Notes under the pieces: model-generated
Seen by the model: the letters and a program-made list of their open reading frames with translations, nothing else
Told to the model about the DNA's origin: nothing
The model's database searches: none
Translations under genes and position numbers: made by a program
NCBI GenBank assembly: GCA_001724265.1
Contig: MEDY01000329.1
Coordinates: 1 to 34,434, forward strand
Length of the DNA stretch: 34,434 bases
Reading direction: 5' to 3'
DNA from: Rhizaria sp. SCN 62-66
Lineage: Eukaryota
Shown here: piece after piece, positions 3,060 to 26,967 of the stretch
How the letters are laid out: each line of letters starts with the position of its first letter
How positions within the stretch are numbered: the first letter of the stretch is position 1

Positions 3060-6000
3060 TTAAAGCTCATTATGAAGCTGTTTGATCTCGAGACTCCACA
3101 GCAGCCCCATCTCCTCCTCCTCCTTGCGGGCCCGCGCGACGGCCTCGAGCGCCGCGCGCACGCGCTGCCGGTGCTCCGCCGCAAAGCTCCCGTACGCGCG
3201 GTCGCGGTGCGTTACGATGGCGCGCGCCAGAGGCCCGCGGTAGGCGGTCACGGCCGGCGACGTCAACACCGTGCCGACGTTAGCACTGCGAGCGCCACCG
3301 TGTTGCTGCTGCTCCTGCTGCTGCTGTTGTAGGGGCGCGTCGGAGGCGGAGTGGGGCGCGGCGGCGATGGACAGGAGGCGCAGCGAAGAGCCTGCCGCGC
3401 CGGCTGCAGCGGCCTCGCCAGCGCCACAGCCGTTGCCAGAAGAGCTACTATTCTTGGCGCCATTGCGATTGTCGCTGCTGTTGTCAAAAGATGCGAACAT
3501 GGACTCGAAGGCGTCAGTGAGTTCGGCGGCGGAAGCGCCGGAGACAGCACGCAGCAGCGCGCCAACCGCGGCCGTCACTGGGTTCGCAGCGGCAGCAGGG
3601 GCAGCGCTGCTGCTAGAGCCAGAGCCAGAATCAGAGCTAGTGGTAAAGCTCGAGCTCGTGCTGCGAGGGGCAGTCGCAAATGAAGCGGCCGCGGCAGCAA
3701 GAGCAGGGGCGCAAGCAGCGGCGACAGGGGCCGACGTGAGCGCAAGCGCCGGTGACAGCGACAACATCAACGATGACGAGGACGAAGATGACGACGACTC
3801 GGAGCCCGAAGTTAAGCCGCTGGTGGTGGCAGCAAGGCGCGACTTAATGTAAGCCGCCTCCATGGCGCGCAGTGAGGCGAACATCGCGATCACAGGATCG
3901 GCAACGAGAGCGCCAGCAGTGATTGCGGTGCCGCTGACATTCACAGTCGACTGACTGGAGACTTGAGTCAAAGCGTTACTCGTGCTCGTAGCAGCGCCGT
4001 GGTGTTGCTGCTGCTTGGCGGCGACAGCAACGGCGTGAGCCAAAAGCTCGCTGCCGAGCTTGAACAGCTGTTTGGAGCCGCCGCTGCCGGTCAGAGCAGA
4101 CTTGGCGCCCGCATTGGTGCTGTTAAGGAGGCCCAGGACGTCGAGGTGCGGACCGAGCACCGCGAGCGGGGCCAGCGGGGACGCGAACACCGCGCTGCTC
4201 ACCCCGCCAGCCGCACCACTCGCGGTGAGAGCACTGGATTTGGCAGAGGCAGCGCTCAAGGAAGCAGCGTTGTTGGTGTTGGCGTTGTTGAGAGCGCGTG
4301 CGAGGGCCACGACGCGGGTGTGCAAGTACCCGTCTAAGGGCAGCATGCCGAGTGTAAGGGGCAGGCCCGGAATGCGCGTCGTTAACAGACGCGGCGCCGT
4401 CGCAGCCACGGCCACGGCACCAGCGCTCGCGTTCGCAGCAGCGGTGGCGGCAGCAGCAGCGGCAACAGCCAAGTCAGAGCCGGAGCCAGCTCCAGCGCCA
4501 GAGCGGGCGGTGAGGGGCGCCAACAGCACGCTCGCGTGGGCCGCGTTCGCAGCGGCGGCAGCAGCGGCAGCGGCAGCGGCAGCGGTGCGGCTGCTGCCGC
4601 CCCCGCCGCGGTGGCCGCCCTCAGCCGCGGCCGAAGCGGCAGCGGCCGCGGCCGCGGCGGTGGCGTTGGCGGCGTTGACGGCTACCGCAGCGGCGGCCAC
4701 GGCGGTCGTGGCCTGCGCGCCGAGGGACATCGCCTCGATGCCGCCGCCGCTACCGCTCTGCGCGTTGGCGCCCTAGCTGGCGCTGGCGGCGGGCTGCGCG
4801 AAAGCGGTGGCGAGGGCGGCGGGCGGCACGCGGCACTCGACGGAGCGCGCGAAAGCCTGGCGCAGGCGCAGCGGGTTGCGCACGGTCACCGCAGCAGAGC
4901 CAGCAGCGGCGCCGTTAGCGCCGACGCTAAGGCTCGTGCTGCCGAGGCTGGAGTTAACGTTGCTGAAGCTGACGGCGGCGGCGGCGGCGCGGGACGGCTC
5001 GGCGCCGCGGATCGCCGGCAGGGTCACTGTCCCGCTGCTGACGCCTACAAAGCTGCCAGCGGTGCCGTTACTTGAAACAGCAACAGCAGTGATGGGAACA
5101 GTGGCATTGCCGACGCTCACGGACGCGTCAGCGAAGTTGCTCGCGACCGTGAGAGGCGCCAGAGCGGGGGCGCCTGCCTTGCGGTCAGACAGAGCGCCGC
5201 TAGTCGTCGCAGTGACAAAGCCGCTCGAGTTAAAGCTATTATTGTCGTTATTGCTGTTGCTGTTGATGCTACGAGCCGAGACGACGGGTGCGAGGTCTTC
5301 GACTGCAATCATCGCGTCGCCGTTGACGACAAGCGCCTGCGTCGCGTGCGTGATGCGCTGCATGAACACGCGCGCGACACAGGCCTCGGCCACCACGGCC
5401 ACCACGCGGTACGCAGCGGCGGCGCGGGCGGCGGCCACCGCGCGCGCAGCCTCCGCCTCGGCCAGCCCCGTCAGACTCGCACCGCCGGCCCCTGCCTCGC
5501 TACCATGGGCCATGAGCAGCGCTGGCCCCAGCGGGCGGCGGTGCGCGACGGCGGCGGCGCGCGTGCTCTCGCGGTGGCGCTCGAACGCCTCCGCCAGCGC
5601 GCGGGCGACAGCCGCGGCCTCTGCGGCGGAGCGGCAGAGAATGTCAGCGAACACGGCGGCGGCGGCGCGCGGCAGCAGCGGGGCCGTGCGCGCGGCCATC
5701 AGCGCCAAACGCGCGCGCGCAGCCACAAGCGTGGCGTGGGCGGACCGGCGCAGCGCGCGCGAATGCGACAGCAGCTGCGGCGGCAGCGCGGGCGCGGACT
5801 GGGACGACATCAGGGCGTCGACAGCGGCGGCGGTGGCGGCTGCGGCGGTGGCGGCGGTGCTGCTGCCGGCTAAGCTGCTGCGAGTGCTGGCACTGCCGTT
5901 GCTGGCGCCGAGAGCGCCGCCCCGAGCGGGTTTGCCGTTCGCGCCGTCGCTACTGCTAGACGGGGACGCGACAGTGACCGATCCAGTGTTGCTGCCGTGG

Positions 6001-9000
6001 CTCGGGCTCACGGGGCTCGCAGCGCCGGCGGCGGTGCCAGCGGAAGGGACGGCGGCCGCGGAGGCGGCATGGCAATAGAATGTGGCGACCATCGAGCGCT
6101 CGTGACTGGCCATGGCGGCGGCGATCGAGTCCTCAAAGAACACAGATGCGCCGCCGACGGCGTTCGCGCCAGAGCCGGGCTTGCCGGCGCTGTCGGTGTG
6201 GCTACCGCTGATATGAGAGCTAGAGTCGCTGTTGCCGCCAGCAGTGTTGAGCCAGGAGCTGGGGGGCAAGGCCCAGGAGATCGCGCCGGAGGCCGCGGCC
6301 AACACGGGCGCGGCCGAGGCGGCGGCGAAGGGCGCAATCGCGCCGTGGCTGCCAACGCTGCTCACGCTCACTGCAGCGGCACCCGCGTTCGAACCGGTAG
6401 CATTAGCGCCGACGCCAGCGCTCTGCGTCGTCGTGGTGGTGCTGGTGACTGAAAGGATGGGCGCAGTAGTCGCCAGAGCGCCCGCGGAGACGGCCAGCGC
6501 GGTACTTACACCAGAGGTACTTACATTATCCGTGACGAACATGTAGGGGAAGAGCAGACGTGTGAGCGGCGAGGCCGTTGCGTTGAGCGCGGCCGCGGCC
6601 CACGTGGCCACGGCGCCCGTGGCGATGATGCCCGTCGACAGCACGGCTGCCGCGGCACCGTCCGAGGGGGTACTTAGAGCGGAGACGGTGGCTACGCGCA
6701 GGTTCACGCCAACAGTCGTGTTACAGCTCGGACCAGCAGCGGAAGCGGCAGTGGTCGCACTCTTCGCGTTGATGTTGTTCACAGCGTTCGCGCCGGCGCT
6801 GTTGTTATACAGGGCATCATGGGCGACGGCGACGGCGCTGGGCAGCGGGAACGACTGGGCAGAGGCCGAGGCGGCCGCGGTGAGCGCGATGGGCGCGGCG
6901 GCGTCGCGCGCAGTGACCACGACGCGGGCGACGGCGCCGGCGCCCGCGCTGCCCACAGCAGCGGCGGAGCCACCGTTGGCGGCGCTAGCGGCTGTGGAAG
7001 CGCTGGCGGGAGCGCTGGTGTGAGTCAGAGTGCTGCTGGTGGTAGAAGTGGCAGCGGCAGGGGCGACGACGGGCACGGTGCTGGTGATCGCGACGACGGC
7101 GACCGCGTCCGTCGCGCTCACAGTCACGGAGCCGCTCGCACCGCAGAAGTCCTGCTGTTGCTGCTGGGGTGAGGGAACGGCGCTCGCCTGCGCGGCCGCG
7201 GAGAGCGCCGCAATGGCAGCCGCGCCCATCCGGCTGCCGCTGTCGCCGCCCGCCGCGCTAGAGCCAGCAGCGCGACCAGCGGCGGCGGCGGCGGCGGCAA
7301 TGAGAGGCAGGGCAAAGGCGTTAGTGCCGGCGCTGCCGCCGACGGGGGCGGACGCGGCGGCGGCGGCGACGGAGGCGGAGGCGGCCGAGGCCGCGGCGGC
7401 CACTGTGTTGGACGCGACGGCTGCGTTAGGGCCGGCGAGCGCGTGGCCCATCGCGACAGCGCTCGCGCCAGAGCCGGCGTCGCCGATGATCGTGGTAGTG
7501 GCGCTGCTCAGAGCGCTGTTGCCGCCGCCGCCGCTGTTCGAGGCGAGCGAGCGGACGAGGGGACTGGAACCAGGCGCGTTGGCGTTGCTGTTGTAGCTAA
7601 CCGCGACGGCGGCGGGGGCGAAAACCGTGTGCGCGTTCAGCACTGAGCCGGCGCTTGGGCCAGCAGCGCCGCCACCGCCAACAGAGCCAGAGGTGGGGGC
7701 ATTACCAGCCGCGCTGCCAGTGTAACTGCCGCCTGCTCCTGCGAGCGGCGCCGCCGAGGCCGCCTGGTCGAGCAACAACGCGGCGTAGCTGCTATCATGC
7801 CAGTGGGGGTTCAGCTCAGGCCACAGCAACAGCGCCGGCGACAACGACGGCGGGAAGATCAACGAAAGCGACGGCGCGCCGCCGCTGCCTCTGCCCGTCC
7901 CACTGCTAGAACCGCCGGAGGTTGTGAAGGTCGGGGCAGCGACCGAGGCAGGCGCGGCGGCGGCGGCGGCGGCAGCGGCGGCGGCGGCGGCGGCGGAGGC
8001 GGAGCCGGCGCGGGCGCCGGGGCGACTGCTGCCGCGGGGGGTGCCTGCAGTGCCGGCGACCCCGACAGCGTTGCTGCCCGCACTACCCGTAACCGCGCTC
8101 GCGCTGGCGTTGCCACCGCTGCCAGGGAGGGCGCTGCCACGCTTGCCGCGCCCGCCGCTGCCGCTGCCGCTGCCGCTGGAGCCGGTGTTGGCGCCGGCGG
8201 CAGCGGCCGCAGCGGCTGCGGCAGCCGCAGCGGCCGCGGCGGCAGCGGTGTTGGCTGAGTGCACGCATGCGAGCAGCGACTCGACCAGCGCGGGTGAGGC
8301 CGCCGCCAGGGCAAACAGCGACGCGTTGCCGGGCACGGCGCCGGCGGCAGCGCCAGCGCCAGAGAGGAAGGCGCGCGAGTGGCCGTGGGCCGCGGCCGCA
8401 GTGGCGAAGTGGCTGTGGGCGGAGCTGTGGGGGTCGTGGAAGGGCAGGCAAAGTACGGAGGCGGGGGGAGCGGGCAGCGCCCACACGCACCGCATATCGC
8501 CGCTGTCGGCCGCTCCGCCCGCGGGCGCGCTGCTCTGCGTGACGCGGGAGTACAGCAGCACCGGCGGGGCCAGCGAGTGGGGACCCGCCGAGGCCGCGAC
8601 AGCGGTCGTGGCGGCGGCGAGCGCGGCGGCGGTCGCGGCCGCGGGCGACAAGCCGTTAACACCGACGGCAGCATTGGAGCTGTTGCCAGCGGCGGCGACG
8701 GATGCGAGCTCGATGGGGTCGAGCACGGCATTAGCGGCGCTTGTGATCGTTCCAGTGTTGTGCGTAGCGATGGCGGGGGCCGCGGACGTGCTTACACTGC
8801 TGTTGGTGTTGGGAATCGCGGATGTAAGCAGGTACGTCCAAGGGGAGACGCCTAAAGGGGCCGCGCCTGTAAGGGCCAGCAGCGTCAGCGACGGCGCACT
8901 CGCAGCGCTGCCGCTAGCAGCAGCAGAGCCGACAGCGGCGGCAGCAGCAGCAGCATTAGCGGCTACAGTCGTACTTGCAGGAGCCGTGGCAGCGGGAGCG

Positions 9001-12000
9001 AGGCTACCGCCGGTGTACGCTGCCGAGAACAGCACAGACTGAGGCAACGGGGGGAGCACACCTGCATTCGTAGCGTTACCATTCGCACCGGTACTGCTGC
9101 CGCTGCTGCCGTTGCTGCTGCTGTCCTCAACGGTGCCAGGGCTAGCGATCGTGACGTTGCCGACGGGGTAGGCCGCGCCGAGCCCCGCGATCGCGAGCGT
9201 GCTCAGGGGGTCAAACCCGCCCGCCCCCGCACCGCCGGTGGCGTACGGGCCCGTGAAGTCCCCCCACTCGGGGTACGTACCGCCCAGCGCAGACTGCGCA
9301 GTCCACAGCAGGCCGCCCGCGCAGGGGAAGGCAGCCGCGGCCGCGAAGGCCGAGGCGGCGGCGGCGGCGGACCCAGGGCCGGCCGCCAACGCGAGGCCCG
9401 TGGCCAGCCCGGGGGCGGAGGCGGCCGCAGCGGCAGCGGCGGCCGCGGCGGCGGCAGCAGCGGCAGCGCCACGCTTGTTGGCACCTCCAGCGGCGGCCGC
9501 AGTGCTCACGGTGGAGCCAGCGCCTGCAGCGCCTGCTGAACCGATGCTGCTGCTGCTGCCTGAGACGGCGGAGTGGCCCGCAGCAGAGCCGGCGACGGCA
9601 CCCGCGGCGGGCGCTGCAGAGGCGGTGGCAGCGGATGGGGGTTGGGGCGGGGGAAATGTGAGCATCGGCGCGAGAGCAGGCGCTAAGGGGGCCGCGGTGT
9701 GCAGGTACCGCGCCTGCGCGGAGGCTGAGAGGTACAGAGACGCCAGCAGTGCGGCGCCGCCGTCGAAACCACCGGCGTTGGAGCTGGGGTTCGCGGGAGA
9801 AGACACTGAAACAATAGCAGTCGACGTTGCACTGTTGATGTTGTTCTTGCTGTTGCTGCTGTTGCTGCTGTTGCTAGTCAAGTATGTCAGCGCGGCGAAC
9901 GCGCGCGGTACGGGCTCGAGCGCGGGCAGCGGCAGCACGAAGGGCGCGGCGCTGCGCGCGGCGGCGACGAGCGCGTGCACGGACTGCGCCCACGAGGGGA
10001 ACGCCAGGGCGAACGAGGAGACAGTCTGCCAGAGCAGAGGGTGGTTCCACGCCACGGCCGCGGCCGGCAGCGGGGCCGGCGCCAGAGTCAGCGCCGCGTT
10101 GCCGCCGCCGCTGCTGCAGGTGCTGCTGTCGCTCAGGAGAGTGACCGTGGGCATGGTGGTGGGCAGCCCCGGGCCGAGCCTCGGCAGCGAGACCGCAGGC
10201 AGCAGCGCCAGCGCGCTGTAGGCGGCCAGCGCGGCGGGGGCCGTCGCGGGCGGCACCAGAGACAAGCCGGCGCTCGCGGCAGAGGCGAAGGACAGCGAGG
10301 AGGCGGCGGCGGCGGCGGCAGCGGCAGCGGCGGCCGAGGAGGAGCCAGAGGCCTTGCCACTGGGGGAGGTGAAGCAAGCGAGAATAAAAGATGACATTTA
10401 GAGACGAAGACGTAAGTTAATGAAAAATATATAAATCATATAGGATCAATATTTCGAATTCTTATTATGGAAAAGGCTAAATTGTGTTGATATACAGATT
10501 TACGTACGCAGCAGAGCGCGAGCCTGCGGAGGCCCCGCCCGCGCCGGCGCCGGCCGCGGCCTGCGGGGGCGGCGAGGCCAGGGCGGCCACGGTCGCGGCG
10601 GGCACCCCGGCCGCCGCCACAGCCGCCGCGACGGCGGGCGTGGCGAGCAGGAGCGGAGTTAGCGTGCCGTTGGCGGCGAGCGCTGCGACATGGGCGCGCG
10701 CGAAGGCCTCGAACACGAGGGCCGCGAGTTTCAACAGAGAGAGCGAGTGCGTGAGGCTCAGTGCGGTCGCAGAGGCCAGCGACAGCGGCGGCAGCGGCTG
10801 CGTCAGGCGGGGCTGCTGTTGCTGATGTTGTTGCTGTTGGGCAGAAGCAGGGGGAGAAGCGGCAATAGAAGCAGACGCGCTGCTGTTGTTGGAACCCTTG
10901 TTCGCAGCAGCAGCACCACCACTAGGAGCGGAAGTCGCAGCGCTCGTATTGCTGGGGACAGTAGAGATGTTGAGATACTCGTTGAACTGAGCCAGGTCGA
11001 TTGAAGCTGCACCGGCAGATCCCGCGTTCGCGCTGATATCCTTGCTGTTGTTCGCAGAATTGCCGCCGCGAGTGCTGCTGTTCCTAGACACACCCTTAGA
11101 CCCTGCGGCATTTACACCCGCCGCACCCGCGCCGGGGCCGCCGGCAGTGGCAGCAGAGAGCGCCGGGGCCTGCGCCTGTGTCTGCGCCTGCGTCAGGGGA
11201 TCCGAGGCCGGGACCAGGGACGCGACGGCGGCGGCGGGGCGCGCGGCCAGCCCGGCGGCGCCGTGGGCTGCCAGCAGGGCGACCGTATGCGCGGCCTGCA
11301 GCTGCAGGAACGCCGTGGCCGCGGCCAGGTGCCGGTGCAGCACCGCCGCGCGCTGCGGGTAAGCCGCGGCGGCCGCGGCCACGACGACGGCACTCGAGCC
11401 AGCACCCGCACCTGCGCTCGCGCTCGCGCTCGGGTTCACGACAGCAGTCGAGTGAGGGTGCGGCTGAGGGCCGCTGAGGACGGGCGCGTAGGCCAGGGGC
11501 AGGAAGCCCGTGACAGCGAGCAGCGTGGCGTTGCTCAGCGGCAGCGTCAGGCCACAGGGCGTGGAGATCACGACACTGGGGACGGCGACGGCGGCGGTCT
11601 CGGCCGCGCCCGCGCTCGCGCTGCTGCTGCTGTTGTTATTGCGGTGGGCGGCGGAGGACGGGCGCGAGTTGGACAGCGCGGACGGCGACCGCGAGGGGGG
11701 CTGCGAGCCACCGGCGCCGCCGCTGCCCCGCACGGACCGGGCGCCAGGCTTGGCGTTCACAGCGGTCGGCGTCGCGACTGCTGCGGCCTCGGCGGTCGCG
11801 TCAGCGGTGTTACCGTCAGCGGTAGCGGTGTTGCCGCCGTTGCCGGCAGCGCCGTCGCCGATGTCGGCGTCGGTGTCGGGGGCGGGGATGGCGGGGGCGT
11901 AGCTGTTGATCGCGAAAGTCAAGCCGCTGACGACGGCGCCAATCGCCGTCGGCATGCCAGCATTGACAGCGCTCGCAGCGCTCGAATTAGAACCAGAGCT

Positions 12001-15000
12001 ACTGTTGTTGCTGTTGTTGTTGCTGTTGTTGCTGCTCGAGGTTGCGGCGACAGCGAGTGGCGACTGCGCCTGCTGCGTGTGGGGCAGCGCGCGGAGATAC
12101 ACGGCGCGGCGGCTGAGCGCCAGGCGCAACGCCGTGAGCATCGACAGCACCTGCACGGCCGCGCTCTCCTGCTCGCAGGCGCCCGCGCACGCGACGGGCA
12201 CGGGGGCGGGCAGGTACACCGCGGCGTCGCTGCTGCCACGGGCGGCCGACTGCTGCGGCAGCGGGTTGGCGGCGACGGTGACTGCGCCAGGCGCGGCGGC
12301 GACAGCGCAGGCGTGCTGCGCAGCGTGCGCGGCGGCGGCGAGCGGGTGCGCCGCGCCCAGCGACGCCATGACGGCGGCGAACACGGCGCGCACCCTCGGC
12401 AGCCGCGCGGCCAGCGGCTCGCGCGAGACCGCGGCGGGCAGCGAGAAGCTGTCGCGGGACGAATTCTTGGCAGGCCTGCTATGGGCGGCGACAGCGCGGG
12501 GAGCGGTCTCAGGGTCGATGCTGCCGGTCTCGACGTCGTTGTCGTCGTCGGTGCTGTTGCTGGTGCTCTTGCTCTCCGGGTCGCTCTCGTCGCCACCGCT
12601 CTGGGCGGCGAGTCGCAGCGCGGCCGCGGAGCGTGGCGACAGCGCCTCAACGGGCAGACTGGCCTTGGTGCTGACGCGCGGGGTAAGGACCGCGCGCGCC
12701 GTCGCGTTCATGCGCTCTTGCAGCGCGCGCTGCCGGTCCGCCGAGGCGGCGATGCTTGCGTCAAACACGGCGACCTCAGACGCGGCGGTGTCGTGGCTAG
12801 CGCTTCCAGTCTTCGCCAGAGTCTTGTTCAGCCTCTTCGTGGTGCCGAGACTGCTGCTCGTGGAGCTCAGACCGCCCAGGTTGCCTGTGCCCTTACCGCC
12901 ACTGTTGCCGCTGCCGCTGCCGCTGCCGTTGTTGTTGTCAAGCTGCTCACAGTCGGCCAGCATGAGCTCCAGCGTCTCAATGAGCCACAGTAGCTCCCTC
13001 TCCTCCACGGCAGCCGCCTCGGTCTCCCGGCTGACCACGTCCACGAGCGACCGCCGAAGCGCGCCGAAGCGCTTGCCCGCGCCGAAGGCCAGGTCGAGCT
13101 CTGCGCCGCGGGCGCCCGAGGCGGCGGCAACGGCGCCCGTCGCGGCGGCCACGGCGGCGGCAACAGCGGCGCGCGCGGAGGCGAAGCGCGCCGTCTGGTG
13201 CGCGTGCAGCGCAGCGAGGGTGGCCGCGGCGGCGTCGAGCTTCGAGGCGTAGATGGCGCGCTCGATCGGGTGCAGCTGCAGAGTCACCGCGGTCGCTGCG
13301 GTGCCGCTGCTCGCAGAGCCGTTACTAACGCTGCTGGTGGTGACGCTGTGAGACTCGGTGATGTTGGTCGAGGTCGTCAGCGATGTCTCTGCAGCAGCGG
13401 CGAGCGCGGGTGTGAAAGCGGGCAACAGGAACCCGCCAGTAGAGCTTGAGCTGTCAGCGCGGTTCGCGTCGGCGCCAATGTCGCTGATAGAGCCGTTGCC
13501 GCCCGCGGCGCCATTGGGGTGAGCGAGCGTGACCGGCCCCGTGGCGGCGTTGGCGCCGGCGCAGGGGTTGAAGGGTCGCACCTGGAAGTGCAGCAGTGCG
13601 TTCTGCTGCGGGAACAGCATCGCGTCCGTCTCGGCCACGGCGTCCAACGCGCCGGAGCCAGCGGCGCCGGCGGCGGCAAAGCGGCCAGTGCTCGCTCCCG
13701 CGTTGAAGCGGTTGCGGCGGACACCCGCGGTCTTGAGGCCCGCAGCCGCAGTGGCGGGGCGCGCGTTGGTGTTCGCCAGAGTCGTGCTCGTCGCAGCGCC
13801 GCCAGTGCGAGTGAGGCTGAGCGCGGTGCCGTCAGACTGCGTGAAGGCCAGCAGCTCGGCGGTCGCCGTGACGGCCTCGAGCGAGAGCAGCAGCTCAGTC
13901 GCATCCCTGCCATACGGCAGCGCGGGTGCGAATGCGCTGAGCCCGCCGCGGTAGCCGCTCACAGTCGCCTGCAGGCGCGCGTTCACCGCCGCGGCCTCGG
14001 CCTCGGCGGCCGCGATGTCCGCGTACGCCTGCGCCGACAGGGCGCGGATGCGCGCGCGGGCGGCTGTCGCCACGGTGGAGGCGTTCGCGCGGTCGTCAGA
14101 CACACTGCCGCTGGAGGCAGAATTAGAGCTAGAGCTGTGGGGGCTGTTGGAGGCGGCGAGTGTTGACTGGCACTGGAGCGCAACGGCCGCGACGTCTCGC
14201 TGCAGAGCCCCGCCGGCGCGCTCGCAGACCGCGGCCGCGGCGGCCTCGCCGCGCTCGGCCTCGCCTGCGACAGCGCCCTCGAAACGCCCGAAGGCGGCCG
14301 CGTGCGCGGCGAGCTGCGCCGACCGCGCGGCCGGAAGTGCGCGCGCGAGACGCGAGTGCAGCGCGGGCAGCTCGTCGCCGCGCTGCATGCTCAGTGACGC
14401 CGCCGCGGCCGTGCGGGCGCGCGCCGCGGCGGTCAGCGCGGTGGCGCGGCGGGTCAGCAGCGACTGCAGGTGGCAAAGGTGGCGCGCGCGCAGGGCACCG
14501 AGGCGCAGCGCGAGGGGGCGCGGGGACAGGCGCAGAGACAGAGGCGCGAGCGTCGCGACAGCACTGCCAACAGCGCTAGCGGAGTGAGAGTTAGAAGAAA
14601 TGAGAAGCTTGCGGATAGTCAAGCGGGCCGTGGTAATAGCCGCGTTATTGATGCTACTACTGCCGTTGTCGTTGTCGTTGTTGTCGACGCCGTTCTCATC
14701 CTCGTCGTCGTCAGCCGTCTCATCGCCCTTGGTACCGTTGCCGTGGATGCCGGAGTCGTCGTCGCAGCTAGCGCTCTTGCAGCCGCCAGCGATGCTCATG
14801 ATGGCGGTGACTGCAGTGAGGGCCGCCGAGACGGCCGGCGTCTCGCCGGGCAGGCAGCACGGGTCGCCGGCGATCAGACTGGCGCCGACGCTACCGACAG
14901 TCATCGCAGTGCAAGAGCTTGCGCCCGCAGTCGATGCGGCGCCAGCGGTGTTGGCGACAGGCGTGTTGAACGCGGCGGCGGCGGCGCGGGCGGCGGCGAG

Positions 15001-17259
15001 CGCGCTGCTGGCCTGCGCCGCCTGCGGGCTGTACAGCGGCACCGTGATCGCGGTCGCCAAAGCGGCCGCGAAGCTGTCGTCGTCGGCGTCGGCGTCGCGG
15101 TCGCCGCCAAAGGTCGAGCCCTCGTCGCTCTCAGCCACCAGCACGGCCGCGGCGGCGTTTGAGCCAGCGCCGACGCCCGCGCCGGCGTTCGCGGTGATAC
15201 CATCCATGTCGGCCGCGGCCGCGAAGGCGACGGCTTCGGCATCGTCGGCCGCCGCCGCGTCGGCCGCGGCGACGGCGGCCAGCAGCGCCGTCAGCGGCAG
15301 GTGCGCGCGACGGCACAACGCCACGGTCAGCGCCAGTGGCAGCGGCGAGCTCAGCGCGCCGGCGCGGACAGCCACGGCGGCGTCGGCGACGGAAACAACA
15401 ACGGGCGACGCGGCGGCAGCGGCGGCGGCAGCGGAGCCAGTGCTAGCGCCGTTGGTCTCGGTAAGAGTGTTAAGGCGGGCGCCGAAGCTGAAGCCGCTAG
15501 AGCTTGAGCTGGAATTGGAACTGGAGTTTGAGCCAACACCCTTGGTCGGGATGATGATGTCGAGGTCCTCAGCGGCCGCAGCGGAAGCAGCGGCGGCAGC
15601 AGCAGCGGCGGCAGCCGCAGCGGCGGCGTTGGCGTTCGTGGCGGCGAGCGCGGCGGCGGCGGCGCGCGTCTCCGCCGCGGCGAGCCTGGCGAGGGCCTGG
15701 GGCGCGGTAAGCACGGCAACGGCGTCGAGCACGATGCTGGCGTCGCACATGTGCTGCGGGAGTAGCGACGGCAGCAGCGCCGCAAGTCTGCTGGAGCTCG
15801 CGGCAGTCGCGCCCGCGCCCGCAGTGGAGCTGTTAGCGCCGCTGCTGCTGTTGCTGTGCAGCAGAGTGAGAGTCGGGGGCGTGGACGTGAGTCGGGTGGA
15901 GTTGCGGGACAGCGTCTCGTTCAGCGCTGCAACGGCGGCGTCATTCACACCGGCGATAGCGCTGCCGCTGGCGGCGCTCAGCGAAGCGCAGTAAAGCTTG
16001 TTGCCAGCGGCGGACGCGTTTGCGGCAGCGTTGGTCGTGCGCGCGGTGCGCGGAGGGCTCTTGACGCCAGCGGTACTCGCATTGGCATTGGCGCTAGCGC
16101 TGCTACTATTAAAAGGAGCAACGGGCGTGCCGCCGTTCGCCGCCGTTGCCGCGCCGCCGTTGCCGTTGCTGGCGAGGCAGTCGCTGTAATAAGCGGCCGC
16201 GATCTCGCCGTCGCTGCTCATGGCCACCGCGGCAGTGGCCGCAACCACGGCGGCCACCGGCGCGGGCGCCAGTCCGGGCCACACCAGCACCGACACGGGC
16301 ACTGCGCTGCCGCCCGCGCGCGTGCCGGCGCTGGGGGCGCCGCGGCGGTTAGAGCGGCGGTCGGCAGACGCAGCAGCGTTCTCAGCGGTGTTGTTATTGT
16401 TAGCGCCAGTGTTGTTGTTGTTGTTGCTGGTGCGGCTGGGTTTGGCGCCGCGGCGCGGGGGCCGCAGCGCAGCCGCGACAGCGGCGGGCGGTGACAGCGC
16501 AACCGCGACCGCCGTGGCGGGGCTCAGCGGCGGCGGCACCAGAGATGCAGCGGCGGCAGCGGCCGCCGCGGCGGCCTCAGCGGCGGCGGCGGCGGCGGCG
16601 GACGGGCGGCCGGGACGGGCCTTAGAGCCGCCGCCACCGGTGACGCTGTTGACAATGGCGTTAGCCGCTGCGGCGACGCTCATCTCTTGCCCGCTACCGC
16701 TGGCGCCGCCGCTAGCAGTGGTGCTGCCAGAAGTGCTGCAGTCGTCGCTGCTCACGTTGGTGGTGATGGTCGAGAGCGCAGAGCTGACGTCGGCGACAAA
16801 CGCGGCGTCGGTCGCAGCGGAGGCGGCCGCCAAGTAGGCAAACGCACTCTGAGTCTTGCCCTTGCCGTCATCGAAGCCCGCGAAATCGGCGCTGTTAGCG
16901 CTGGAAGCACTCCCAACATCGGAGTTTACACTGCTGCTGCTGCTGTTGCTGCTGCTATTGTTGCTGTACACGACAATTGCGTTCTTGTTCGCAGAAGCGC
17001 CGTTCTCGCTGTTCGCGCCGTTCGCACCCGCACTCGCACTGCCGCCGCTGCCGCTGCCGTTGCTGTTGCAGCCGGGCTCGGGAACCGTGAGCGCGGTGGG
17101 CGGCAGCGTCGAGAGCATGTGCGCCGACAGAATAGTCGCCAACGCCACGGCCGACGGGGACGCCGCGAAGATAAGCCCCGGGGCTGCGGGCACCAGCGCG
17201 GCAGGGGACTTGTTGCAGTCGGCAGCCTCGCTGGCCTCGGCGGCGGCAGCCGCGGCGGC

Positions 17260-17292
<33 letters not shown>

Positions 17293-20200
17293 CTTGTTGC
17301 CGCCCTTACCGGCGCTGCTGCTGCTGCTGCTGTTGGCGGAGACGGTGGCGGCGGCGGGGAGCGAGGCGGGAAAAGCAAGAGCGGCGGCGGCCGCGGCAGC
17401 CGCGGTGACGGCGGCGGAGACCGCGGTGTTGCTGTGCGCCGCGAAGGGGGTGACCGCGTGCGTGGAGAGGTGGTAGAGGTGGCAGTCCAGCGGCAGCGGC
17501 AACCCCGCCACGGCGGCGGCCACTACAGACACGAGCGCCGCCGGACTGAACGGCAGCGGCGGGCACTGGGGCGCAGCAGCAGCCACCGCAGTCGAGGTGG
17601 TGAGACTTGAGGTGTCGGCAAAACCGGCGGAGGCGCTTGCGCTTACGCTGCTGCTGTTGCTGTTGTTGTTGACCGCGGTGATAGGGCAGGGCGGCGAGCG
17701 CAGCTGGGACAGGGCCGCGGGCAGCGGGAGGTAAGTTAAGCCGCACTCGCTCACAGTCGACGCGGCGACAGCCTCCAGAGCAGCGACTCCGCAGCTCGCA
17801 GTCGCGCCAGCAGTAGTCACGACGTTGGCGCCGGCTGCGTTGCCGCTGCTGCTGCTGTTGCCCAGGCCGTAGCTGTTGGTCTTCGAAGCGGCAGCTGCGG
17901 CGTTCACGGCTCCGGCGCCGCCCGCCTTAGCGCTGCCTGTGTTCGCGCCCGAGGCCTCGCGGCTGTGCGAGCGGTTGCGCGCGCCAGCGCCCGTGGTCCC
18001 GGGCCGCGACCCGCCGCTGCCGCCACTGTTGGTGCGGTGATGGCCACTCGGCTTGGAGCTGCCGCTGCCGCTGCCCACGATCGCCGTCGCCGCCGCCGCA
18101 GCAGCAGCCGCAGCCGTGCGCACAGTGCTCGAGTGCTCTTCCAGCGCGCGCTGCTGCTGGGTCAGCGCGATGCGCTCCAACTGCGCGGCCTGCTCGCGGC
18201 GGCGCTCGGCGCGCAGGGCAAGGAAGGACATCGCGGCGCCCTGCGCGGAGGAGCCGGCACCGTAACCGCCGGAACCCGCGGGGGTACTCATGGGGTAACC
18301 CGTGGGTGAGCTGGCGATGGAGGCCGCGGTGGACAGCGCGGCGGCGGCAGCGGCGACGGCGGGGGCCGGTGCGAGGCCCAAGATCGAGGCCAGCAGGGCG
18401 TCCGGGTGCGCGGCGTCGAGGAAAAGCAGAGGAGCGCTGCCGTCGCCGCTGATGACGCTCGTTGCAGCCGCAGCGCTGCTGCTGCTGCTAGCGCTGGCGT
18501 TGCCGGCGTTGTTGCTGGGAGAGTTGTAAAGAGACACGGTGCCAGGGAGCTCAGCTGCGGGCAGCATCAACACAACACCGTCACCGCCGTTGGCTCTATT
18601 AGTCGCATTTGCAAGCAGCATGGCGTTTGCCGAGACCGCGAGCGGTGCCGCGATGGGCGCGGGCACGAGCGCCAGCGTCTGCGGCAAGTTAAGCCGCGGC
18701 ACGTGCGGCGCGAGCGCGCTCACAGTCACCGCCGCCGCCTCCTTCGAGGCCTTGACGTAGGTCAGCGCGCGCGTGGCCGTGGTGGCGGCGGCGGCGGCCA
18801 CGGCGGCGGCGCCGGTCAGGCGGGTCGGTCGCGCAGGGGTGCTGCCGCGACTGGTGCTACCGTTGCCTGCAGCAGCGCTGTTACTGCCATACGCTGCATG
18901 ACTGTTGGCATAGGCACTGGCGCTCGCTGCAGTGGCGTTGAGCGCGAGGCCGTTGAGGTTGGAGCCGAGAGCACTCGAGCCGGACAGACGGCGGCCGCTG
19001 GCAGTGCCGGGGGGAGAACCCGCCCCGCCTGCGTTAGAGCCACTGCCACTGCTGTTGCTGCTGGTGTGGCCGTGGCCGCGGCGGGAAGGCGGAGCGGCGG
19101 CGGCCGAGGCGTCCGCGGCGGTGGCGTCCGCGGCCTGGGCCAGCGCGGCGCGGTGGGCGGCAGCCGAGGCGGTCGCCGAGAGGCCGATGGCCGCAACACT
19201 GGCGGGGTGAAGGGCGTAGGCGTACCCGCTTGCAGCGTCAGTCGCGTCGGTCGCGGTGTCAAAGTCAGCGGTGAGCTTCTCACGGTCACTCTTGCGCTCA
19301 CGGTCACTCCCACAGTCGCTAGCGCGCTCGCTGGCGGGGTCGTAGGCACCGGCGATGGTGATAGTCATGGGGGGCGTGCGCGGCCGCGAGGGCGGGGGCA
19401 GCATGTCGAGTCCAAACAGCACTTGCTCTGCCAAAGTGGCCGAGGTCACTGGAGCGCCTGCACTTAGATCCGTGTAAGTGTCCAGAGACGACATGATGTC
19501 CGCGACGGCCGCGTCCAGCAGCGCAGCCGTGCTGGCACCGGCACCGGCACCCGTGGCAGTCGCGGCGTGGGCGTTGGCGCGAGCGCTACCACTGGTGCTG
19601 CTGCTGGTGGTGTTGGAGTGGGTCAGAGCGGGTGCGGAGGCGCGGAAACGCTTGTGGTACAAGCGCGGCAGGAACGCAATTACGTGGGCCACGGCGGTGG
19701 GCGTGGGGATGGGCAGGGTAAGCGAGACGCCGCCCAGGCGGGACAGCGGCAGAACACTGAAAGGATTACTTCCCCCTGTCGCAGTCGCGGACGCGGGAGA
19801 CGCAGAGACTGAGACGGCAGCGCTGGCGTCCAAGTCCGAGAGGCTGTTGTTGTTGCTGTTGCTGTTACCAGCAGGGCTAGTGAGGTTAGCCGTCAGGAAA
19901 GGAGGCGAGTTAAGCAGGGAATCAATCGCTGCCAAAGCATCACTCGCGTTGCCCTAAGGAGTATGAAATGAGTTTATATATAGCACAAGATGACAGCATA
20001 GAAATACAAATCTGAGCAAAAATGAATATGAATTGGATTGCATTTTGGTGATGAAAAGTATATTTACATAAGTGAGATATATGATGTGCGAATCTCTTGT
20101 TTATCTCCGTACCTGAATGAGTTGCTTGTGCGCCCGCACGCGCGCCAGCTGCTCCGCCACGGGCAGCGCGGCCGGAAACGACAGTGAGTCGCACACAGTC

Positions 20201-23200
20201 ACCGTGGCGGCCGGGCCGCCGTGTGCGCCCTTTTTCCCAGCAGCACCGGTGGCGGCGGTGGCATCGTGGTTGGCCGAGTTGACTGCGTTGGTACTGTTGT
20301 TGCTGTTGTTGGCGGAACCGGGCTTGGAGCGGCGGCCGGTGACGGCGCTGCCGCTGCCACTGCCGCGCGCGCTGCCCGGGGGCGCGGCACCGGTCGCCGA
20401 GACGGCCGCAGCGGCGGAGACGGTGGCGGTAACCGTGGGGGCGGGGGCGCGGCCCTTGCTGCCCGCCCGTTGCTGACCTTGGCCCTGGCCCTGAGCCTGA
20501 GACTGCGACGACGTCTGTGTCTGAGGGCGGCCGCGGCCACCGCGCGCCTCGCTGCCAGTGCCGGGCGCGCTACCACCGCCGCCCTCGGCCGCTGCGACTG
20601 CCGCAGCAAGCCTGGCTTCGGCGGCGGTGAGCAGCGGCAAGTCCCTGGCGAGCGCGGCGGCCGTGGCGGCGCGGGCGCGCAGCAGCGCGGGCACGGCGGG
20701 CAGGCCGAAAAGCGCGCCCATCGCGGTTAGCGCGTGCTCGCTCAGCGCGGCCGCCGCCGCCGTGTGCTGCGCGGCGGCCGCGGAGGTCAACGCCAGCCAG
20801 TCGCGGTGCGTCGCCGCCCAGAGGCCTGTGCCGGAGCCAGCAGCAGCGGCGGCGCCACCGGTGGTGTTCGCGTTCGCACTCGCATCGGCGCTAGTAGAGC
20901 TGTTCTTGTTAGAGCCAGGAGTATTGGCGGCGCTATTGACGGGGCTGAGCGCGGGCTCGGTGCGCAGCAACGCGTCCAGGTGCCCACGCTCCTGCGCGAC
21001 TGCGCCCGGCGTGGGCGCCTGGAGCAGGCGCGCGTGGTGCTGCTGAGTGGCGGCGCGGAGGTCGTCGCAGCGCACGCAGTAGAGCGTCCACAGCTCATGC
21101 AGCTTCAGCGCATAGTGCATATCGCACGCCAGCGACTGAGAGACCGCCGAGGACCACACGGCCGCCAGCGAAGTCAGGAACGCGGCGACAGACGCTGTGG
21201 TCGAGAGCAGCGCCTCGCTGTCGCGCGCGGCCTTGGCCGACAGGCGGGCGTGCGCGAGCGCGGCCTTGGTGTGGGGCAACCGCAGCAGCGGCGCCGTCAG
21301 CGCGATGAGGTGGCCGTCCACCGTGGCCGCTGAGGGCGGCACGGGCGCCGAGGCCAGCGCCAGCAGCGCGGACGGCGTGAGGAACGCCTGAGAGGCCTCC
21401 GCCACATCCGCGGCCGCGGTAGACCCGTTGTTGGCGGCGAGCAGCAGCCGGCGCGTCTTGTTGGCGGTGGCGTGGAGGCGGCGGCGCAGCGCCAGCACGG
21501 CGGCGGCAGCGCGGCGCTCGTGGGCCAGGTCCGCCAACGCGAGCTTGGCCAGGATGCAGCGGAGAACGAGGGTGCCGCGCGCGTGCAGAGCGAAGAGCAG
21601 CTCGGAGACGAAGGCGGTCGCGGTGCAGTCATCCTGCGCGCTGGCGCCGGCGCCGCTCTCTGTCGCAGCAGCAGTGGCACTGGCGCTGGCGCTGGAGCCG
21701 TTTTCGGTGGCGGGCAGATAGGGCAGAGAGAGAAGGTGCCGCTCCCAGGCGGGGTCGAGAGCGAACGGAACGAACACGGAGGACTCTGCGTCGTCGCTGC
21801 AGTCGCTGTCAGCGTCGCCATCGGAGTCGGACGAGTCGGAGTCACTGTCAGAGTCGGCGTCGTCGCTGCTGTCGCGAGATTTTGCGTTGCGCTGCACACT
21901 AGACCGGTCGCTGCTGTGGGCGTTCGCCTTGTTGCTGTTCGTGAAGGCCTTGTACGAGAGGCTGTCAGCGAGCTCGGCCTCGGTGGGCACGGTGTGCGCC
22001 AGCGTGGCCAGTGCGCCGAGCGCGGCCGACAGCGGGGGCAGCGGCAGCACACCGGAGTGCAGCGCAAAGCCAGCGCTGCTGCTCAGAGTGGACGCAGCAG
22101 CGCTAGCGTCCGTGTGAGCGTTGCTGCTGTCAGTGGGAGACGGACTGGACACGGTCAAACGCACCGCATTCGCCCCAACAACAGCAGCAGCAGAAACAGC
22201 AGTGGCAGGAGCGCTCATAACGCTTGTGCTGGCAGTAGTGGCGACGGCGACTGTGGTTACCATGCCGTCGGCGGCGATCACGGTCGGGGTCCCGTTGCTG
22301 ATGCTGTTGAAGGCGGCAACAGGGGCGCGCTTGTAAGCAGTGAAGGTGCGCTCGACCGCGGAGAGGATGTCGGCGGCGGAGGCGAAGTGGCCGCGCTGCT
22401 GCTGCTGTAGTTTCATCGTGGAGGACAAGCCGCCCCGCGCGGAAGGTAAGCCGCTCGCCGCAGTGGTGCTGAAGGCGCGGGGCGTGTGCGACTGCGTGTG
22501 CGCGGGCGAGTGGCTGCTGCTCGTGTTGTTAAACGCAAAGGCAGTTGTGCCCATGGACTTGTATGTCACACTACTGGCCGTGCTGCTAGCACTGTGATTG
22601 TAATTGTTATCGCTGTTGTTAGTAGGGTTGGGATTGCTGAGGACGTCGTTAAGCACCACAGTGAAAGGGTCACGGTCATACACAGACACATTCACGGCAC
22701 TAGAGTTCACGTTAGCAGTAGCATTGTTGCCCGCGTCATCAGCACCAGCGACAGCCGCAGCCGCCGCAGCCGCGGCCGCCGCAGCGGTGGCGTTGGCGGC
22801 CGACGCGGTGATGAGTGCCTCCACGGCCACGAGCGGCCGCAACGCGACCAAGTTCGGGGTCGAGATGAACGAATGCGCCGCGCCCGCAACGGGATTCAGC
22901 GCCGCCGCGCCCGCGGACGACGGGGCGGGGCTGCCCGCGGGGCGGCTAAACTTCGATGCGCTGGCACTGGACCCGGAGGCAAAATTCGAGTAGAACGAGC
23001 TCCCGTCGTTGCTTGAGTTGCTGTCGCTGCTGAACGTGGTAAAAGCAGGGTCGATTTCGTGCTTTTTAGGCGCCAAATGCTTGAACGCCGCTGCAATGAC
23101 CGCATTCACGGCAGCGTTTACCGCCCGTGTAGTCGCGGTCAGCTGCTGCAGCAGCTTCGCCTGCGTCAGAGGCATGTTATTCGCGCTCTTAGACTTGCGG

Positions 23201-26001
23201 GCCTTGCGACCGCTCTTGCCGTTGAAGCCGCTCGTAGTCGCATCAGCGGCTGCGGCCGTCGTCACGGGCTGCTGAGCAGAGTGCGCGGAGTCCGGACGGC
23301 GGCCGCGCTTGGCGCCCTTGGTGGCACGCCGATGCGACGGGACACCGGCGTTGCCGCTCTGCTTCTGCTCCTGCTCCTGCTCCTGCTCCTGCTCGAACGA
23401 CACGACAGAGCTCGAGCTAGAGCATGTGTTAGTGCTCTTGTTGATGCTGCTTTGGGAACTCGCAGTCGCAGCGGGCACGTAGGGCGCCTTGAGCTTGCTG
23501 ACAGTCTTGTTGCACAGCATCTGGTGCCGGCGGGCGCCCCAGCGCAGCAGCGCCTGGCCCCAGACCGCCTTGACCCACGCCTCCCGCTGCAGCCCCTCGC
23601 TGCGCAACCGCGCGACGACGGCGGCGCGCGTGCCCGCGTTGCGTGTGAGCACGAGCGCCTCGCTGTCGACGCACTGCTGCAGCTCGAGCGCCGCCGCGTC
23701 ATGGCCCAACCCGCCCGCGGCCGCCGCCACGCACTGCGCCGCGCACGCCGCCACGGCCTCGGCGATGCGGCCGCGGTGCTCCCGGTCGCTGCGTTCGAGC
23801 TCGGCGGCCAGAGCGGCCACCACGTCGCCGCGCGCGCGCAGCAGCGCCGTCACCGAGGCCTGGTGTTGCGCCAGCTCAGCGCTGCCGCCCGCCCACGCGG
23901 CGTCGACCCGCTGCGCGTGGATTAAGTTAAGCCGCGCCGCCGTCTCAGCCTCGTCGGCGAGCGCGGCGGCGGCGGCGCGGGCCGCGGCGGCCAGCTCGCG
24001 CTGACGCTGCTTCGCCGTCTCAACCGCGGCGGCAAGAGCAAGCTTCGCCGAGGCCAGGGCGGCGGTCGCAGCGGCCACGGCGGGGGTCGGCTGTTGCTGC
24101 TGCTGCTGCTGCGCCGCGTCAAGGGCGCCGGCGTTGGCATTGTTGCGCTTCGAAAGCGTGCCGCGATGGGAGCTGCTGCTGTTGTTGTTAATGCTGTAGG
24201 TGCCTGAGGTAGGGGTGGCCGCCGCGGACGCGGGGGAGCCGAGGCGGGTGGACGCGGACCGGGACGACGGACGCTGCGCCGACGCGTTACCAGCGTTCAA
24301 ACTCGCATTCGAGTCGGACTCTGCGATGGCGAGGGCCAGCGACGCAGCCTCCTCGGTCGTCGTTGCCGCCTTGACCTGCTCCTGGGCCTCGGCCAGCGCG
24401 GCAGCCGCGGAGGCCTTTTCCTGCTCGAACACGTCACTCAACCGAGGCGGCTTGACTTCCGCTGCGGCGTCTATGGCAGCCTGGTCCACCGCGCCCAGGT
24501 CGTGCAGCTTGGCCGCGATGGCCGCGTCCGCGCCGTGCAGCGCCGTCCGGGCCGCGTAGAGCGCCGCGGTGGCGGCGTCGCCGGCGAGCCGCGCGGAGGA
24601 GAGGATGGCGCTGCGGGCGGCGGCCACGGCGGCGGACTGCGCCAAAGAGCGACGGGCAGCGAGAGAAGACAAACGGGGGGAAAAGGCCGGGGCGGAGTCT
24701 AATGGGGTCGAGAACAAGGCACTTAGCTCACGGTCGGCTTCAGCAGCCACTGCGTCCTCATCATCATCGTCATCATCGCCATAATTGTAGCTGTTGTTGA
24801 TTGCGTTGTTGCCTGTGATAGACAGCTTATCAAACACATCGACAACATTCACGTTCCGAACACCAGAGCCAGAGCCAGAGCCTGAGCCAACACTCGCAAT
24901 CGCAGAAAAGCCAGAGCTGGCGCTGGCGCAAACGCTGGGCATGTGGGTGTGCGACTGGTCCACGGGGTCGTCCGGCAGCTGCGAGACCAGCGCGGCGTCG
25001 TCGCGGCGGCTGCCCATGCTGCCCAGAATCGGCGGCGGCCCCGTGGGCGGGACAAGCCCCAGGGACAGCAGCAGCGCGCGCGCGCGTGCCTTGAGCGAGG
25101 CACGCGACGCGGCGACGCGTAGAGCGGCGGCCGAGGCGACCGCGTTGTCGTAGTCGTCGTCGCCGTCGTTGTTATTGGGGTCACTGGGGAAACCGCTGCT
25201 GCTGCTCGTGACAGTCAGCGCTGAGCGGGGCGCTGAAATGCTGCGGCTAGAGTCTGCGTCAGCGTTATCGATGGCACTGCTGCTACTGCTGCTGCTGCTA
25301 AGACTGGCCAGCGTGGACGGGTAAAGTGCGGCGTGGAGCAGGTCGTGGAACCCGCTCACAGTTACGGAGCTCGTGTCGAGCTTGAAAGCCGAGGCGTCGG
25401 ACGCGACTGACGCGGCGGCCGAGGAGGACGTGCTGACTACCGCGCCCACGCCACCCCCGCCGCGCCCGCTGAAACCCGGGCCGTGGTGCTGCTGTTGCTG
25501 TGCGGTGACGGCGGAGGCAGCAGCGCGCGTGGCGGGCTCGAGCGGCGTCGCCTCGTCCCCGCGCGCCTGGGCCGTAGCGAGCGCGCGGACAGCGGCCTCG
25601 GTCTTGAGGCGCGCGTACGGCACCCAACCGTCGGCGGTAGCCAACGTGGCGATCAGCTGCGCCGCCTTGGTCGCCCACTGCTGCGGGGTCACGGAGGGCG
25701 TGCACTGCGACGCGGCGACAGGCTGATGCTGTTGCTGCTGCTGCTGGGCGCTCGCACCAACGTCCGTGCTGGTGCTGTTGCTGCTGGTGGCGGCTGCGGC
25801 GGAGGAGCGGAGCGCGGTGGTGGCGAGCGCGGCGGACATGGTCGTGGCGAGCTTGGTAGCGTGCAGTGGGTTAAGCGCCACCGATGAAGGCGGCAGCGCG
25901 CTCAGCACAACGGGGGGGCGCGGCGGCGCGGCGGGGGAGCCCGGGGCGCGCGGCTTAGAGGTCGCGGGGGCCGCGGGGGAGGGCGAACCGGCGCGGCTCA
26001 T
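3060..26001 (-). CDS. CCDC180: Giant CCDC180/CFAP76-like (DUF4455 + DUF4456) flagellar protein; exons 26001-20113, 19953-10508, 10359-3060; in-frame TAG at 4773-4775; 7,544 aa if TAG is sense, 6,973 aa if it is a stop
   Basis: Four consecutive same-strand ORFs are joined in frame by two AT-rich GT-AG introns and one TAG. Conserved islands were recognised from memory of the family. N-terminal: LERSDREHR..EALVLTRNAGTRAAVVARL..LQREAWVKAVWGQALLRW (about 23920-23510, DUF4455-like). Internal: FERHRE..HRRPLGPAL..EAEAAR (about 5690-5330, DUF4456-like). C-terminal: RAIVTHRDRAYGSF..EEEEMGLLWSLEIKQL. ATG at 26001-25999, TAA at 3062-3060. Confidence 0.72.
4773..4775 (-). other. In-frame TAG inside coding sequence (putative sense codon)
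   Basis: Context gcc agc gcc agc TAG ggc gcc aac gcg cag. The frame continues for 570 more sense codons to TAA at 3060, with the same GC-rich Ala/Ser/Gly codon style on both sides and no AT-rich intron. Confidence 0.85.
10360..10507 (-). other. Spliceosomal intron 2 of the CCDC180-like gene, 148 nt, phase 2
   Basis: Donor GC|GTACGT, AT-rich body, pyrimidine tract ..cttgcttcacctcccccAG|T. Splicing gives GCT and joins the two ORFs in frame (RSAA-GKASGSS). Confidence 0.88.
19954..20112 (-). other. Spliceosomal intron 1 of the CCDC180-like gene, 159 nt, phase 0
   Basis: Donor CAG|GTACGG, AT-rich body, acceptor ..tttcatactccttAG|GGC. Splicing joins KQLIQ to GNASDALAAID in frame. Confidence 0.9.
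23365..23394. repeat. (CTGCTC)5 hexamer encoding an EQEQEQ dipeptide repeat on the - strand
   Basis: Read directly from the sequence. Confidence 0.85.
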
Positions 26002-26841: not shown

Positions 26842-26967
26842 ATGGCCCGGCCACCAGGCAAGTCTGTCTAGTTCCCTTTCTCAGATTCTCTACGAGCTGC
26901 ATACTCACTCCAAAAACCCGTCCACGTGTCCGTACTCCCCGTCGGTTCCATATCCGCCACCGAGGCG

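Follow-up and report, generated by a model that had tools for sequence, protein, structure and literature searches.

A probably decoded in-frame TAG upstream of a conserved C-terminal tail in a giant predicted CCDC180/FAP76-type gene

A stretch of 34,434 nucleotides from Rhizaria sp. SCN 62-66 (assembly GCA_001724265.1, contig MEDY01000329.1, positions 1 to 34,434; hereafter the window) carries on its minus strand a giant gene that, judged by sequence, encodes a protein of the CCDC180/FAP76 type and that is interrupted, 570 sense codons before its terminal TAA, by an in-frame TAG. This TAG is probably decoded, most likely through the use of TAG as a sense codon genome-wide. The gene spans 26118 to 3060 and comprises three exons and two AT-rich introns, the removal of which yields a 22,752-nt coding sequence (CDS) of 7,583 codons without a frameshift, in which the TAG, at codon 7013, is the sole internal stop (Table 1). 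The splice sites are predicted from composition, motif and frame, and no spliced joints at the two introns are listed among the read contigs placed on the window. The organization is eukaryotic in style, with exons of ~72% GC and introns and spacers of ~35-42% GC. Ala makes up 26.4% of the encoded protein and Ser 13.7%, and short islands of higher complexity are interspersed.

The evidence that carries this conclusion is a conserved element behind the TAG. The last 66 residues of the spliced protein align without gaps to the end of P0001, an environmental member of the CCDC180/FAP76 family (residues 831-896 of the last 896 against 1700-1765, 17 of 66 identical, BLASTP E 3e-4), and the alignment finishes on the final residue of both proteins. 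When the whole spliced protein is used with masking of low complexity, the E-value of the tail match is 4.7e-5. The Smith-Waterman score of 87 compares with a shuffle mean of 24.4 for the last 100 residues of P0001 (reached by none of 2,000 shuffles, z 14.4) and of 35.4 for the whole of P0001 (none of 500, z 10.9), and an alignment of the two tails over 82 columns contains 20 identical ones. AlphaFold2 folds the last 80 residues into one long helix over residues 16-79 with a mean pLDDT of 88, in agreement with the non-repetitive helical block that an earlier note, made from the DNA letters without database searches, had seen at this position. With a second family member, P0002, the resemblance is confined to ~20 residues at the start of the block, of which 7 of 18 aligned are identical (E 18), which is not significant alone, and z over the tail as a whole is 1.5; the remainder of the P0002 tail is probably a mispredicted end of the gene. 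The ESM Atlas returned no family for the last 80 residues (best score 0.85). By these alignments, the block is a tail conserved at least among P0001-like members of the CCDC180/FAP76 family. The earlier note had called it a CCDC180-type C-terminus, and of this the homology to the last 66 residues of P0001 stands, while the motif that it gives for CCDC180 tails could not be confirmed on solved FAP76 or mouse CCDC180.

In P0001 ~125 residues link DUF4456 to the tail, as against ~670 in the giant protein, and it is within this longer linker that the TAG is found. Because the TAG thus lies between DUF4456 and the tail helix, the conserved tail is made only if the TAG is decoded, and the sequence comparison supports the view that a full-length protein would need this decoding. 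The earlier note had taken this need as functional support for reassignment: the need itself holds up, while it does not separate reassignment from readthrough.

The assignment to the family is anchored on the other side of the TAG, where the earlier note had suspected a DUF4456-like block at about 5690-5330. Pfam places DUF4456 (PF14644) at 5699-5274 with 29.8 bits and E 6.5e-7, above the gathering cut-off of 27.5 bits, and an isolated fragment of 201 residues reaches 35.8 bits and E 9.9e-9 (nt 5702-5271, profile positions 58-194 of 210). When the last 896 residues of the giant protein, with the TAG rendered as Q merely to bridge it, were compared exhaustively by phmmer with 1,835,955,588 protein representatives, the single match at E <= 0.001 was P0001, with E 1e-5 over three stretches. 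Pfam scores this protein of 1,765 residues at 235 bits for DUF4455 and at 74 bits for DUF4456, and it matches the solved structures of FAP76 (7n6g, 7sqc) with E 1.1e-35 and that of mouse CCDC180 (9ijj_F) with E 8.8e-12. P0002, with 1,770 residues, DUF4455 at 241 bits and DUF4456 at 79 bits, came from a word-based protein search begun with P0001, which found nothing besides P0001 itself and P0002; the same kind of search begun with the DUF4456 region and the tail of the giant gene gave no matches. In BLASTP the DUF4456 region of the giant protein (residues 25-155 of the last 896) matches residues 1436-1556 of P0001 with 32% identity and E 1e-10, and residues 1473-1592 of P0002 with 25% identity and E 3e-5.

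Outside these two elements the resemblance to the family is weak and colinear. With low-complexity masking, P0001 has six BLASTP matches to the whole spliced protein, all of them colinear, of which the tail match is the best. Among the weak ones, residues 296-355 and 1278-1322 of P0001 pair with 812-867 (E 1.3) and 4596-4637 (E 0.005) of the giant protein, and residues 352-406 and 507-618 of P0002 pair with 824-878 (E 0.21) and 1596-1707 (E 0.038). The DUF4455 parts of the two family members are thereby weakly matched to giant-protein residues 812-878 and 1596-1707, at the E-values of 1.3, 0.21 and 0.038 just given. A hidden Markov model (HMM) built from P0001 and P0002 found DUF4456 in the giant protein with 29.9 bits and the tail weakly with 1.6 bits, did not detect the DUF4455 region, and was empty on the reversed-sequence control. 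The last 896 residues gave no FAP76/CCDC180-family match among the PDB sequences at E <= 10 (phmmer), and the link of the giant protein to solved FAP76 and CCDC180 is transitive because its route runs through P0001. The AlphaFold2 model of the DUF4456 fragment consists of three long helices (pLDDT 65), for which Foldseek against the PDB returned nothing at E <= 0.001, the one match reported being an antifreeze helix rich in Ala (E 1.3). Scans of metagenome contigs gave 590 pattern matches with the tail peptide and 593 with the DUF4456 alignment, of which none was confirmed.

The open frame behind the TAG is not due to chance. In the list of open reading frames (ORFs) under the standard code, two frames of 1,874 codons (4773..10397) and 570 codons (3060..4772) abut in the same minus-strand frame, separated by the TAG at 4775-4773 and closed by the TAA at 3062-3060; the 570 in-frame sense codons with a TAA end that the earlier note had reported are thus borne out by the ORF list, by the identities of the stops and by the translated terminal peptide. 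Over 4772-3273 the frame is free of stops, while the two alternative sense frames contain 12 and 14. The GC content at codon positions 1/2/3 is 0.668/0.647/0.746 after the TAG, as against 0.667/0.709/0.807 before it. When a log-likelihood of codon usage is trained on the 7,012 codons upstream of the TAG, the downstream sequence scores +0.489 bits per codon in frame vs -0.805 and -0.897 in the other sense frames; antisense frames score between -0.17 and -1.14, the 3' flank scores between -0.73 and -1.05, and in all six chunks of 95 codons behind the TAG the in-frame reading scores highest. Just beyond the terminal TAA the GC content drops from ~64-73% to 36% (segment 2854-3102). Pfam recognizes no family at E <= 1 in the 570 residues behind the TAG.

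The same measurements bear on the possibility that the TAG is absent from the mRNA, be it that an overlooked intron ends on it or that 3060-4730 is transcribed separately. The context CTAG/G (the slash marking the splice point) does resemble the acceptor TTAG/G of intron 1. However, the recognisable introns of the giant gene are ~150 nt long, of 35% GC and start with GTACG, and neither composition nor donor motif reveals such an element near the TAG: no 40-nt window falls below 45% GC across 3102-5210, the donor-like motif GTA[CA]G does not occur in 4300-5300, and the 300 nt before the TAG are open in frame with a GC content at third codon positions (GC3) of 0.86. Nor does the TAG coincide with a spacer of the kind seen elsewhere in the window, where all three intergenic spacers are AT-rich and at least ~700 nt long. 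A contig from the polyA RNA library X5 runs unspliced over 4759-4932, which is a weak argument in the same direction as it may stem from DNA or pre-mRNA. Removal of the TAG from the mRNA is therefore highly improbable, and the splice acceptor or separate transcript that the earlier note had named as threats to its interpretation find nothing intron-like or intergenic around the TAG to support them.

A second body of evidence comes from stop-codon usage in the window. The in-frame codons of its four genes (n=10,314) include three TAG, no TAA and no TGA, and the in-frame TAGs are present in both of the two complete genes. The other complete gene, a divergent neighbour of the giant gene, holds two of them, behind which 449 and 655 codons are open. 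The genes themselves end on TAA in three of four cases and on TGA in one, and none ends on TAG (a small sample).

Several results weigh against TAG decoding by a reassigned code or against the family assignment on which it draws. There are just three TAG codons, all of them in low-complexity sequence (Ser-rich at two, Gln-rich at one), with no alignable conserved column for the inserted residue. Of the single-base routes from sense to stop in these genes, 62-65% yield TAG, and three TAGs out of three would be expected under random nonsense mutation with p ~0.24; the codon count alone therefore proves little. A tRNA scan and Rfam gave no matches over the window, which accordingly contains no tRNA gene. 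The X5 contig that crosses the TAG reaches merely 14 letters beyond it, and no X5 contig bridges the TAG by 31 letters or has a spliced joint that would prove an RNA origin. On the side of the family, Pfam did not detect DUF4455 (PF14643): neither exon 1 nor exon 2 has it at E <= 1, nor do eight tested fragments at E <= 10. Searches of the PDB sequences with the last 896 residues, the last 100 residues, the last 81 residues of P0001 and a profile of the two tails did not return FAP76 or CCDC180, the best hits (E 0.12 to 2.1) all being unrelated proteins, and the pairing of the P0001 tail with the mouse CCDC180 tail scores -0.5 bits. Because the codon statistics are weak, the weight of the case for TAG decoding rests on the conserved tail and on the absence of frameshifts.

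Under the standard code, a leaky or programmed readthrough of the TAG would produce a short form that lacks the tail, together with a longer, minor one that has it. Three TAGs per 10,314 codons would be a very low usage for a true sense codon, as readthrough would explain, and all three lie in low-complexity linkers, where any residue would be tolerated. On the other hand, readthrough would require two successive events in the neighbouring gene, and it sits poorly with the full coding-type codon usage over the 570, 449 and 655 codons behind the TAGs, with a conserved family tail behind a stop and with the lack of TAG at the ends of the four genes. Such readthrough is unlikely, and the choice of a genome-wide reassignment over it would draw on the three TAG codons of the window.

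Sequencing reads bear on whether the TAG is instead a real stop, be it a recent nonsense mutation, a strain polymorphism or an assembly error, with 3063-4772 as a decaying relic. Three DNA runs from bioreactors or wastewater contain 0.99 of the words of the window, and smaller shares occur in other wastewater, sludge and fuel-cell runs. In run X1, a possible source of the DNA, a contig covers 4616-5683 with no differences; the three runs with the 0.99 share are possibly the source itself, and hence their agreement is not independent, which leaves room for such an error or polymorphism. The predominance of TAG among the single-base nonsense products would likewise fit a real stop, and the undetected DUF4455 and the huge inflation of the protein could reflect relaxed constraint. 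Yet the 7,583 and 1,785 codons of the two complete genes, 9,368 in all, are free of frameshifts, TAA and TGA despite long indel-prone repeats, codon usage shows no decay past the TAG, and the neighbouring gene holds two further TAGs.

A relative with ~2-3% divergence, seen in contigs of runs X4 and X5, speaks against a relic as well: both of its two indels within the ORF (behind 3977 and at 5247) measure 15 nt, whereas of the four in the 3' flank two have lengths that three does not divide. A real stop at the TAG is improbable on this evidence. The substitutions listed for the related strain downstream of the TAG fall on third codon positions in 4 of 11 cases, by our own count, and thus without enrichment. 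At 3061 a single X4 contig (depth 7.8) has C for T on the plus strand, read as a stop-to-stop change of the terminal TAA to TGA, in line with TAA and TGA as the terminators. Two changes in the last 21 codons of the related strain (X4), at 3083 and 3125, are read as Lys to Gln, each from one low-depth contig. The X5 library has low-depth contigs before and behind the TAG, among them 3362-3819, 4759-4932 and 5066-5423, with another five besides.

Decoding of the TAG, most likely by a reassigned code, is thus the preferred explanation, and it may be pictured as follows. A gene of the CCDC180/FAP76 type would have been inflated to ~4.3 times the family size by low-complexity inserts rich in Ala, Ser and Gly, while keeping the domain order of the family at its 3' end, namely DUF4456 (5702-5271), a linker of ~670 residues and a terminal helix of ~66 residues (3260-3063). 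The ribosome would insert an amino acid at the TAG at 4775-4773 and in this way make the conserved tail. The organism, a GC-rich eukaryote of wastewater or bioreactors, would use TAG as a sense codon genome-wide and terminate at TAA and TGA.

Compared with CCDC180 and FAP76 (CFAP76), the giant protein has DUF4456 above the Pfam cut-off and weak colinear matches to P0001 and P0002 over its whole length, and it shares with P0001 the order of DUF4456, linker and terminal helix, with tails that align end to end. It differs in its length of 7,583 codons, as against 1,638 for FAP76, 1,664 for mouse CCDC180 and 1,765-1,770 residues for P0001 and P0002, and in its composition (26% Ala, 14% Ser), in a DUF4455 that Pfam does not detect, in the in-frame TAG in its linker and in having no direct sequence match to solved FAP76 or CCDC180. 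The location of the family on the C1 microtubule of the ciliary central apparatus is known for Chlamydomonas and mouse: FAP76 is listed in a table of PMC6548120 as a CCDC180 orthologue with DUF4455 and DUF4456 at C1, and according to PMC12297659 mouse CCDC180 extends along C1, to whose 32-nm repeat it contributes. A ciliary function would be expected of the giant protein.

Among nuclear codes, a difference in meaning between UAG and UAA is known from a mere handful of lineages according to passages of PMC5304391 and PMC11687900, which assign UAG alone to Gln in Iotanema spirale, Protocruzia tuzeti and some phyllopharyngean ciliates, to Leu in the rhizarian exLh and to Ser in Scotinosphaera. 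As in these codes, TAG occurs here inside long genes with a conserved frame, and TAA and TGA stand at the gene ends; the present case rests on three TAGs and is set in GC-rich exons separated by the GC-poor introns and spacers described above. UAA and UAG both encode Gln, according to PMC11687900, in Ulvophyceae, hexamitid diplomonads, Streblomastix, Amoeboaphelidium and many ciliates. Here too, a stop codon of the UAR pair serves as sense, but unlike in those codes TAA terminates, at the ends of three of the four genes, and in the giant gene exactly where P0001 ends. Literature searches on activated-sludge eukaryotes with a reassigned stop and on recent UAG reassignments in protists, in which most papers were judged by their listing and the opening of the abstract, brought up none that fits a GC-rich eukaryote from wastewater using a code of this kind. 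The window adds a gene of the CCDC180/FAP76 type and a probable UAG-sense nuclear code to these known kinds.

The remaining features of the window are listed with those above in Table 1. Within the giant protein, long low-complexity inserts alternate with conserved islands, and every repeat-rich stretch is in frame. The contrast between introns of ~150 nt and 35% GC, both GTACG-initial, and the exons of 72% GC around them could serve gene finding in this organism. The neighbouring gene is separated from the giant gene by an AT-rich spacer of ~700 nt (26126-26824); it contains runs of poly-Q, Ser, Asn and His-Arg, and AT-rich sequence follows its TAA. At the two margins of the window, the gene at the right end (33673-34434, minus strand) and the final ~250 residues of its left-end counterpart (1289-2083, plus strand) are paralogues with 81% identity over 250 residues (E 2e-147), and their inverted orientation means that an inverted duplicated gene segment flanks the window. 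Pfam found nothing at E <= 1 in this paralogous domain, and its nearest neighbours in the ESM Atlas are clusters of cyclophilin-type peptidyl-prolyl isomerases (PPIases; 26 of 30 matches), mostly from Chlorophyta, the top score of 0.95 belonging to an unnamed cluster; this is a weak lead to the lineage of the organism.

Table 1. Positions of the giant gene, its parts and the neighbouring gene in the window
Feature	Coordinates	Strand	Basis and remarks
Exon 1	20113..26001	-	from first ATG; frame open to 26118; first Met is residue 40 of the open frame
Intron 1 (predicted)	19954..20112	-	159 nt, GTACGG...TTAG, phase 0, AT-rich; segment 19938-20132 has 35% GC
Exon 2	10508..19953	-	open frame and splice reconstruction
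Intron 2 (predicted)	10360..10507	-	148 nt, GTACGT...CAG, phase 2; segment 10361-10520 has 35% GC; splicing restores the frame
Exon 3	3063..10359	-	frame and acceptor CCCAG/T; spliced CDS a multiple of three
DUF4456 (PF14644) domain	5271..5702	-	Pfam and BLASTP; upstream of the TAG
In-frame TAG, codon 7013 of 7,583	4773..4775	-	in low-complexity linker, DUF4456 on one side, tail helix on the other
Low-complexity linker (Ala/Ser-rich) and conserved tail, 570 sense codons	3063..4772	-	frame, GC3, codon usage
C-terminal conserved helix, last 66 residues (7518-7583 of the spliced protein)	3063..3260	-	BLASTP, shuffles, AlphaFold2
Terminal stop TAA of the giant gene	3060..3062	-	stop read from the sequence; AT-rich flank next
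Neighbouring gene, 1,785 codons, TAA end	26872..32229	+	two in-frame TAGs, 28909-28911 and 30259-30261; no Pfam family

For the biology of the organism, the window tentatively suggests a flagellated eukaryote of wastewater bioreactors that may have made UAG alone a sense codon independently, for Gln or Ser, with UAA and UGA as its stops, and in which ciliary proteins may have been expanded several-fold by low-complexity inserts while short conserved islands were kept; this wider picture has somewhat less than an even chance of being right. Gene callers that apply the standard code would break up the giant gene at each intron as well as at the TAG and so hide an orthologue of 7,583 codons of a central-apparatus protein. 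The position of a conserved element of the family behind an in-frame TAG provides functional evidence for decoding that is independent of codon statistics, which are weak in this window. If the wider picture is true, UAG and UAA would have been uncoupled independently once more in a nuclear code.

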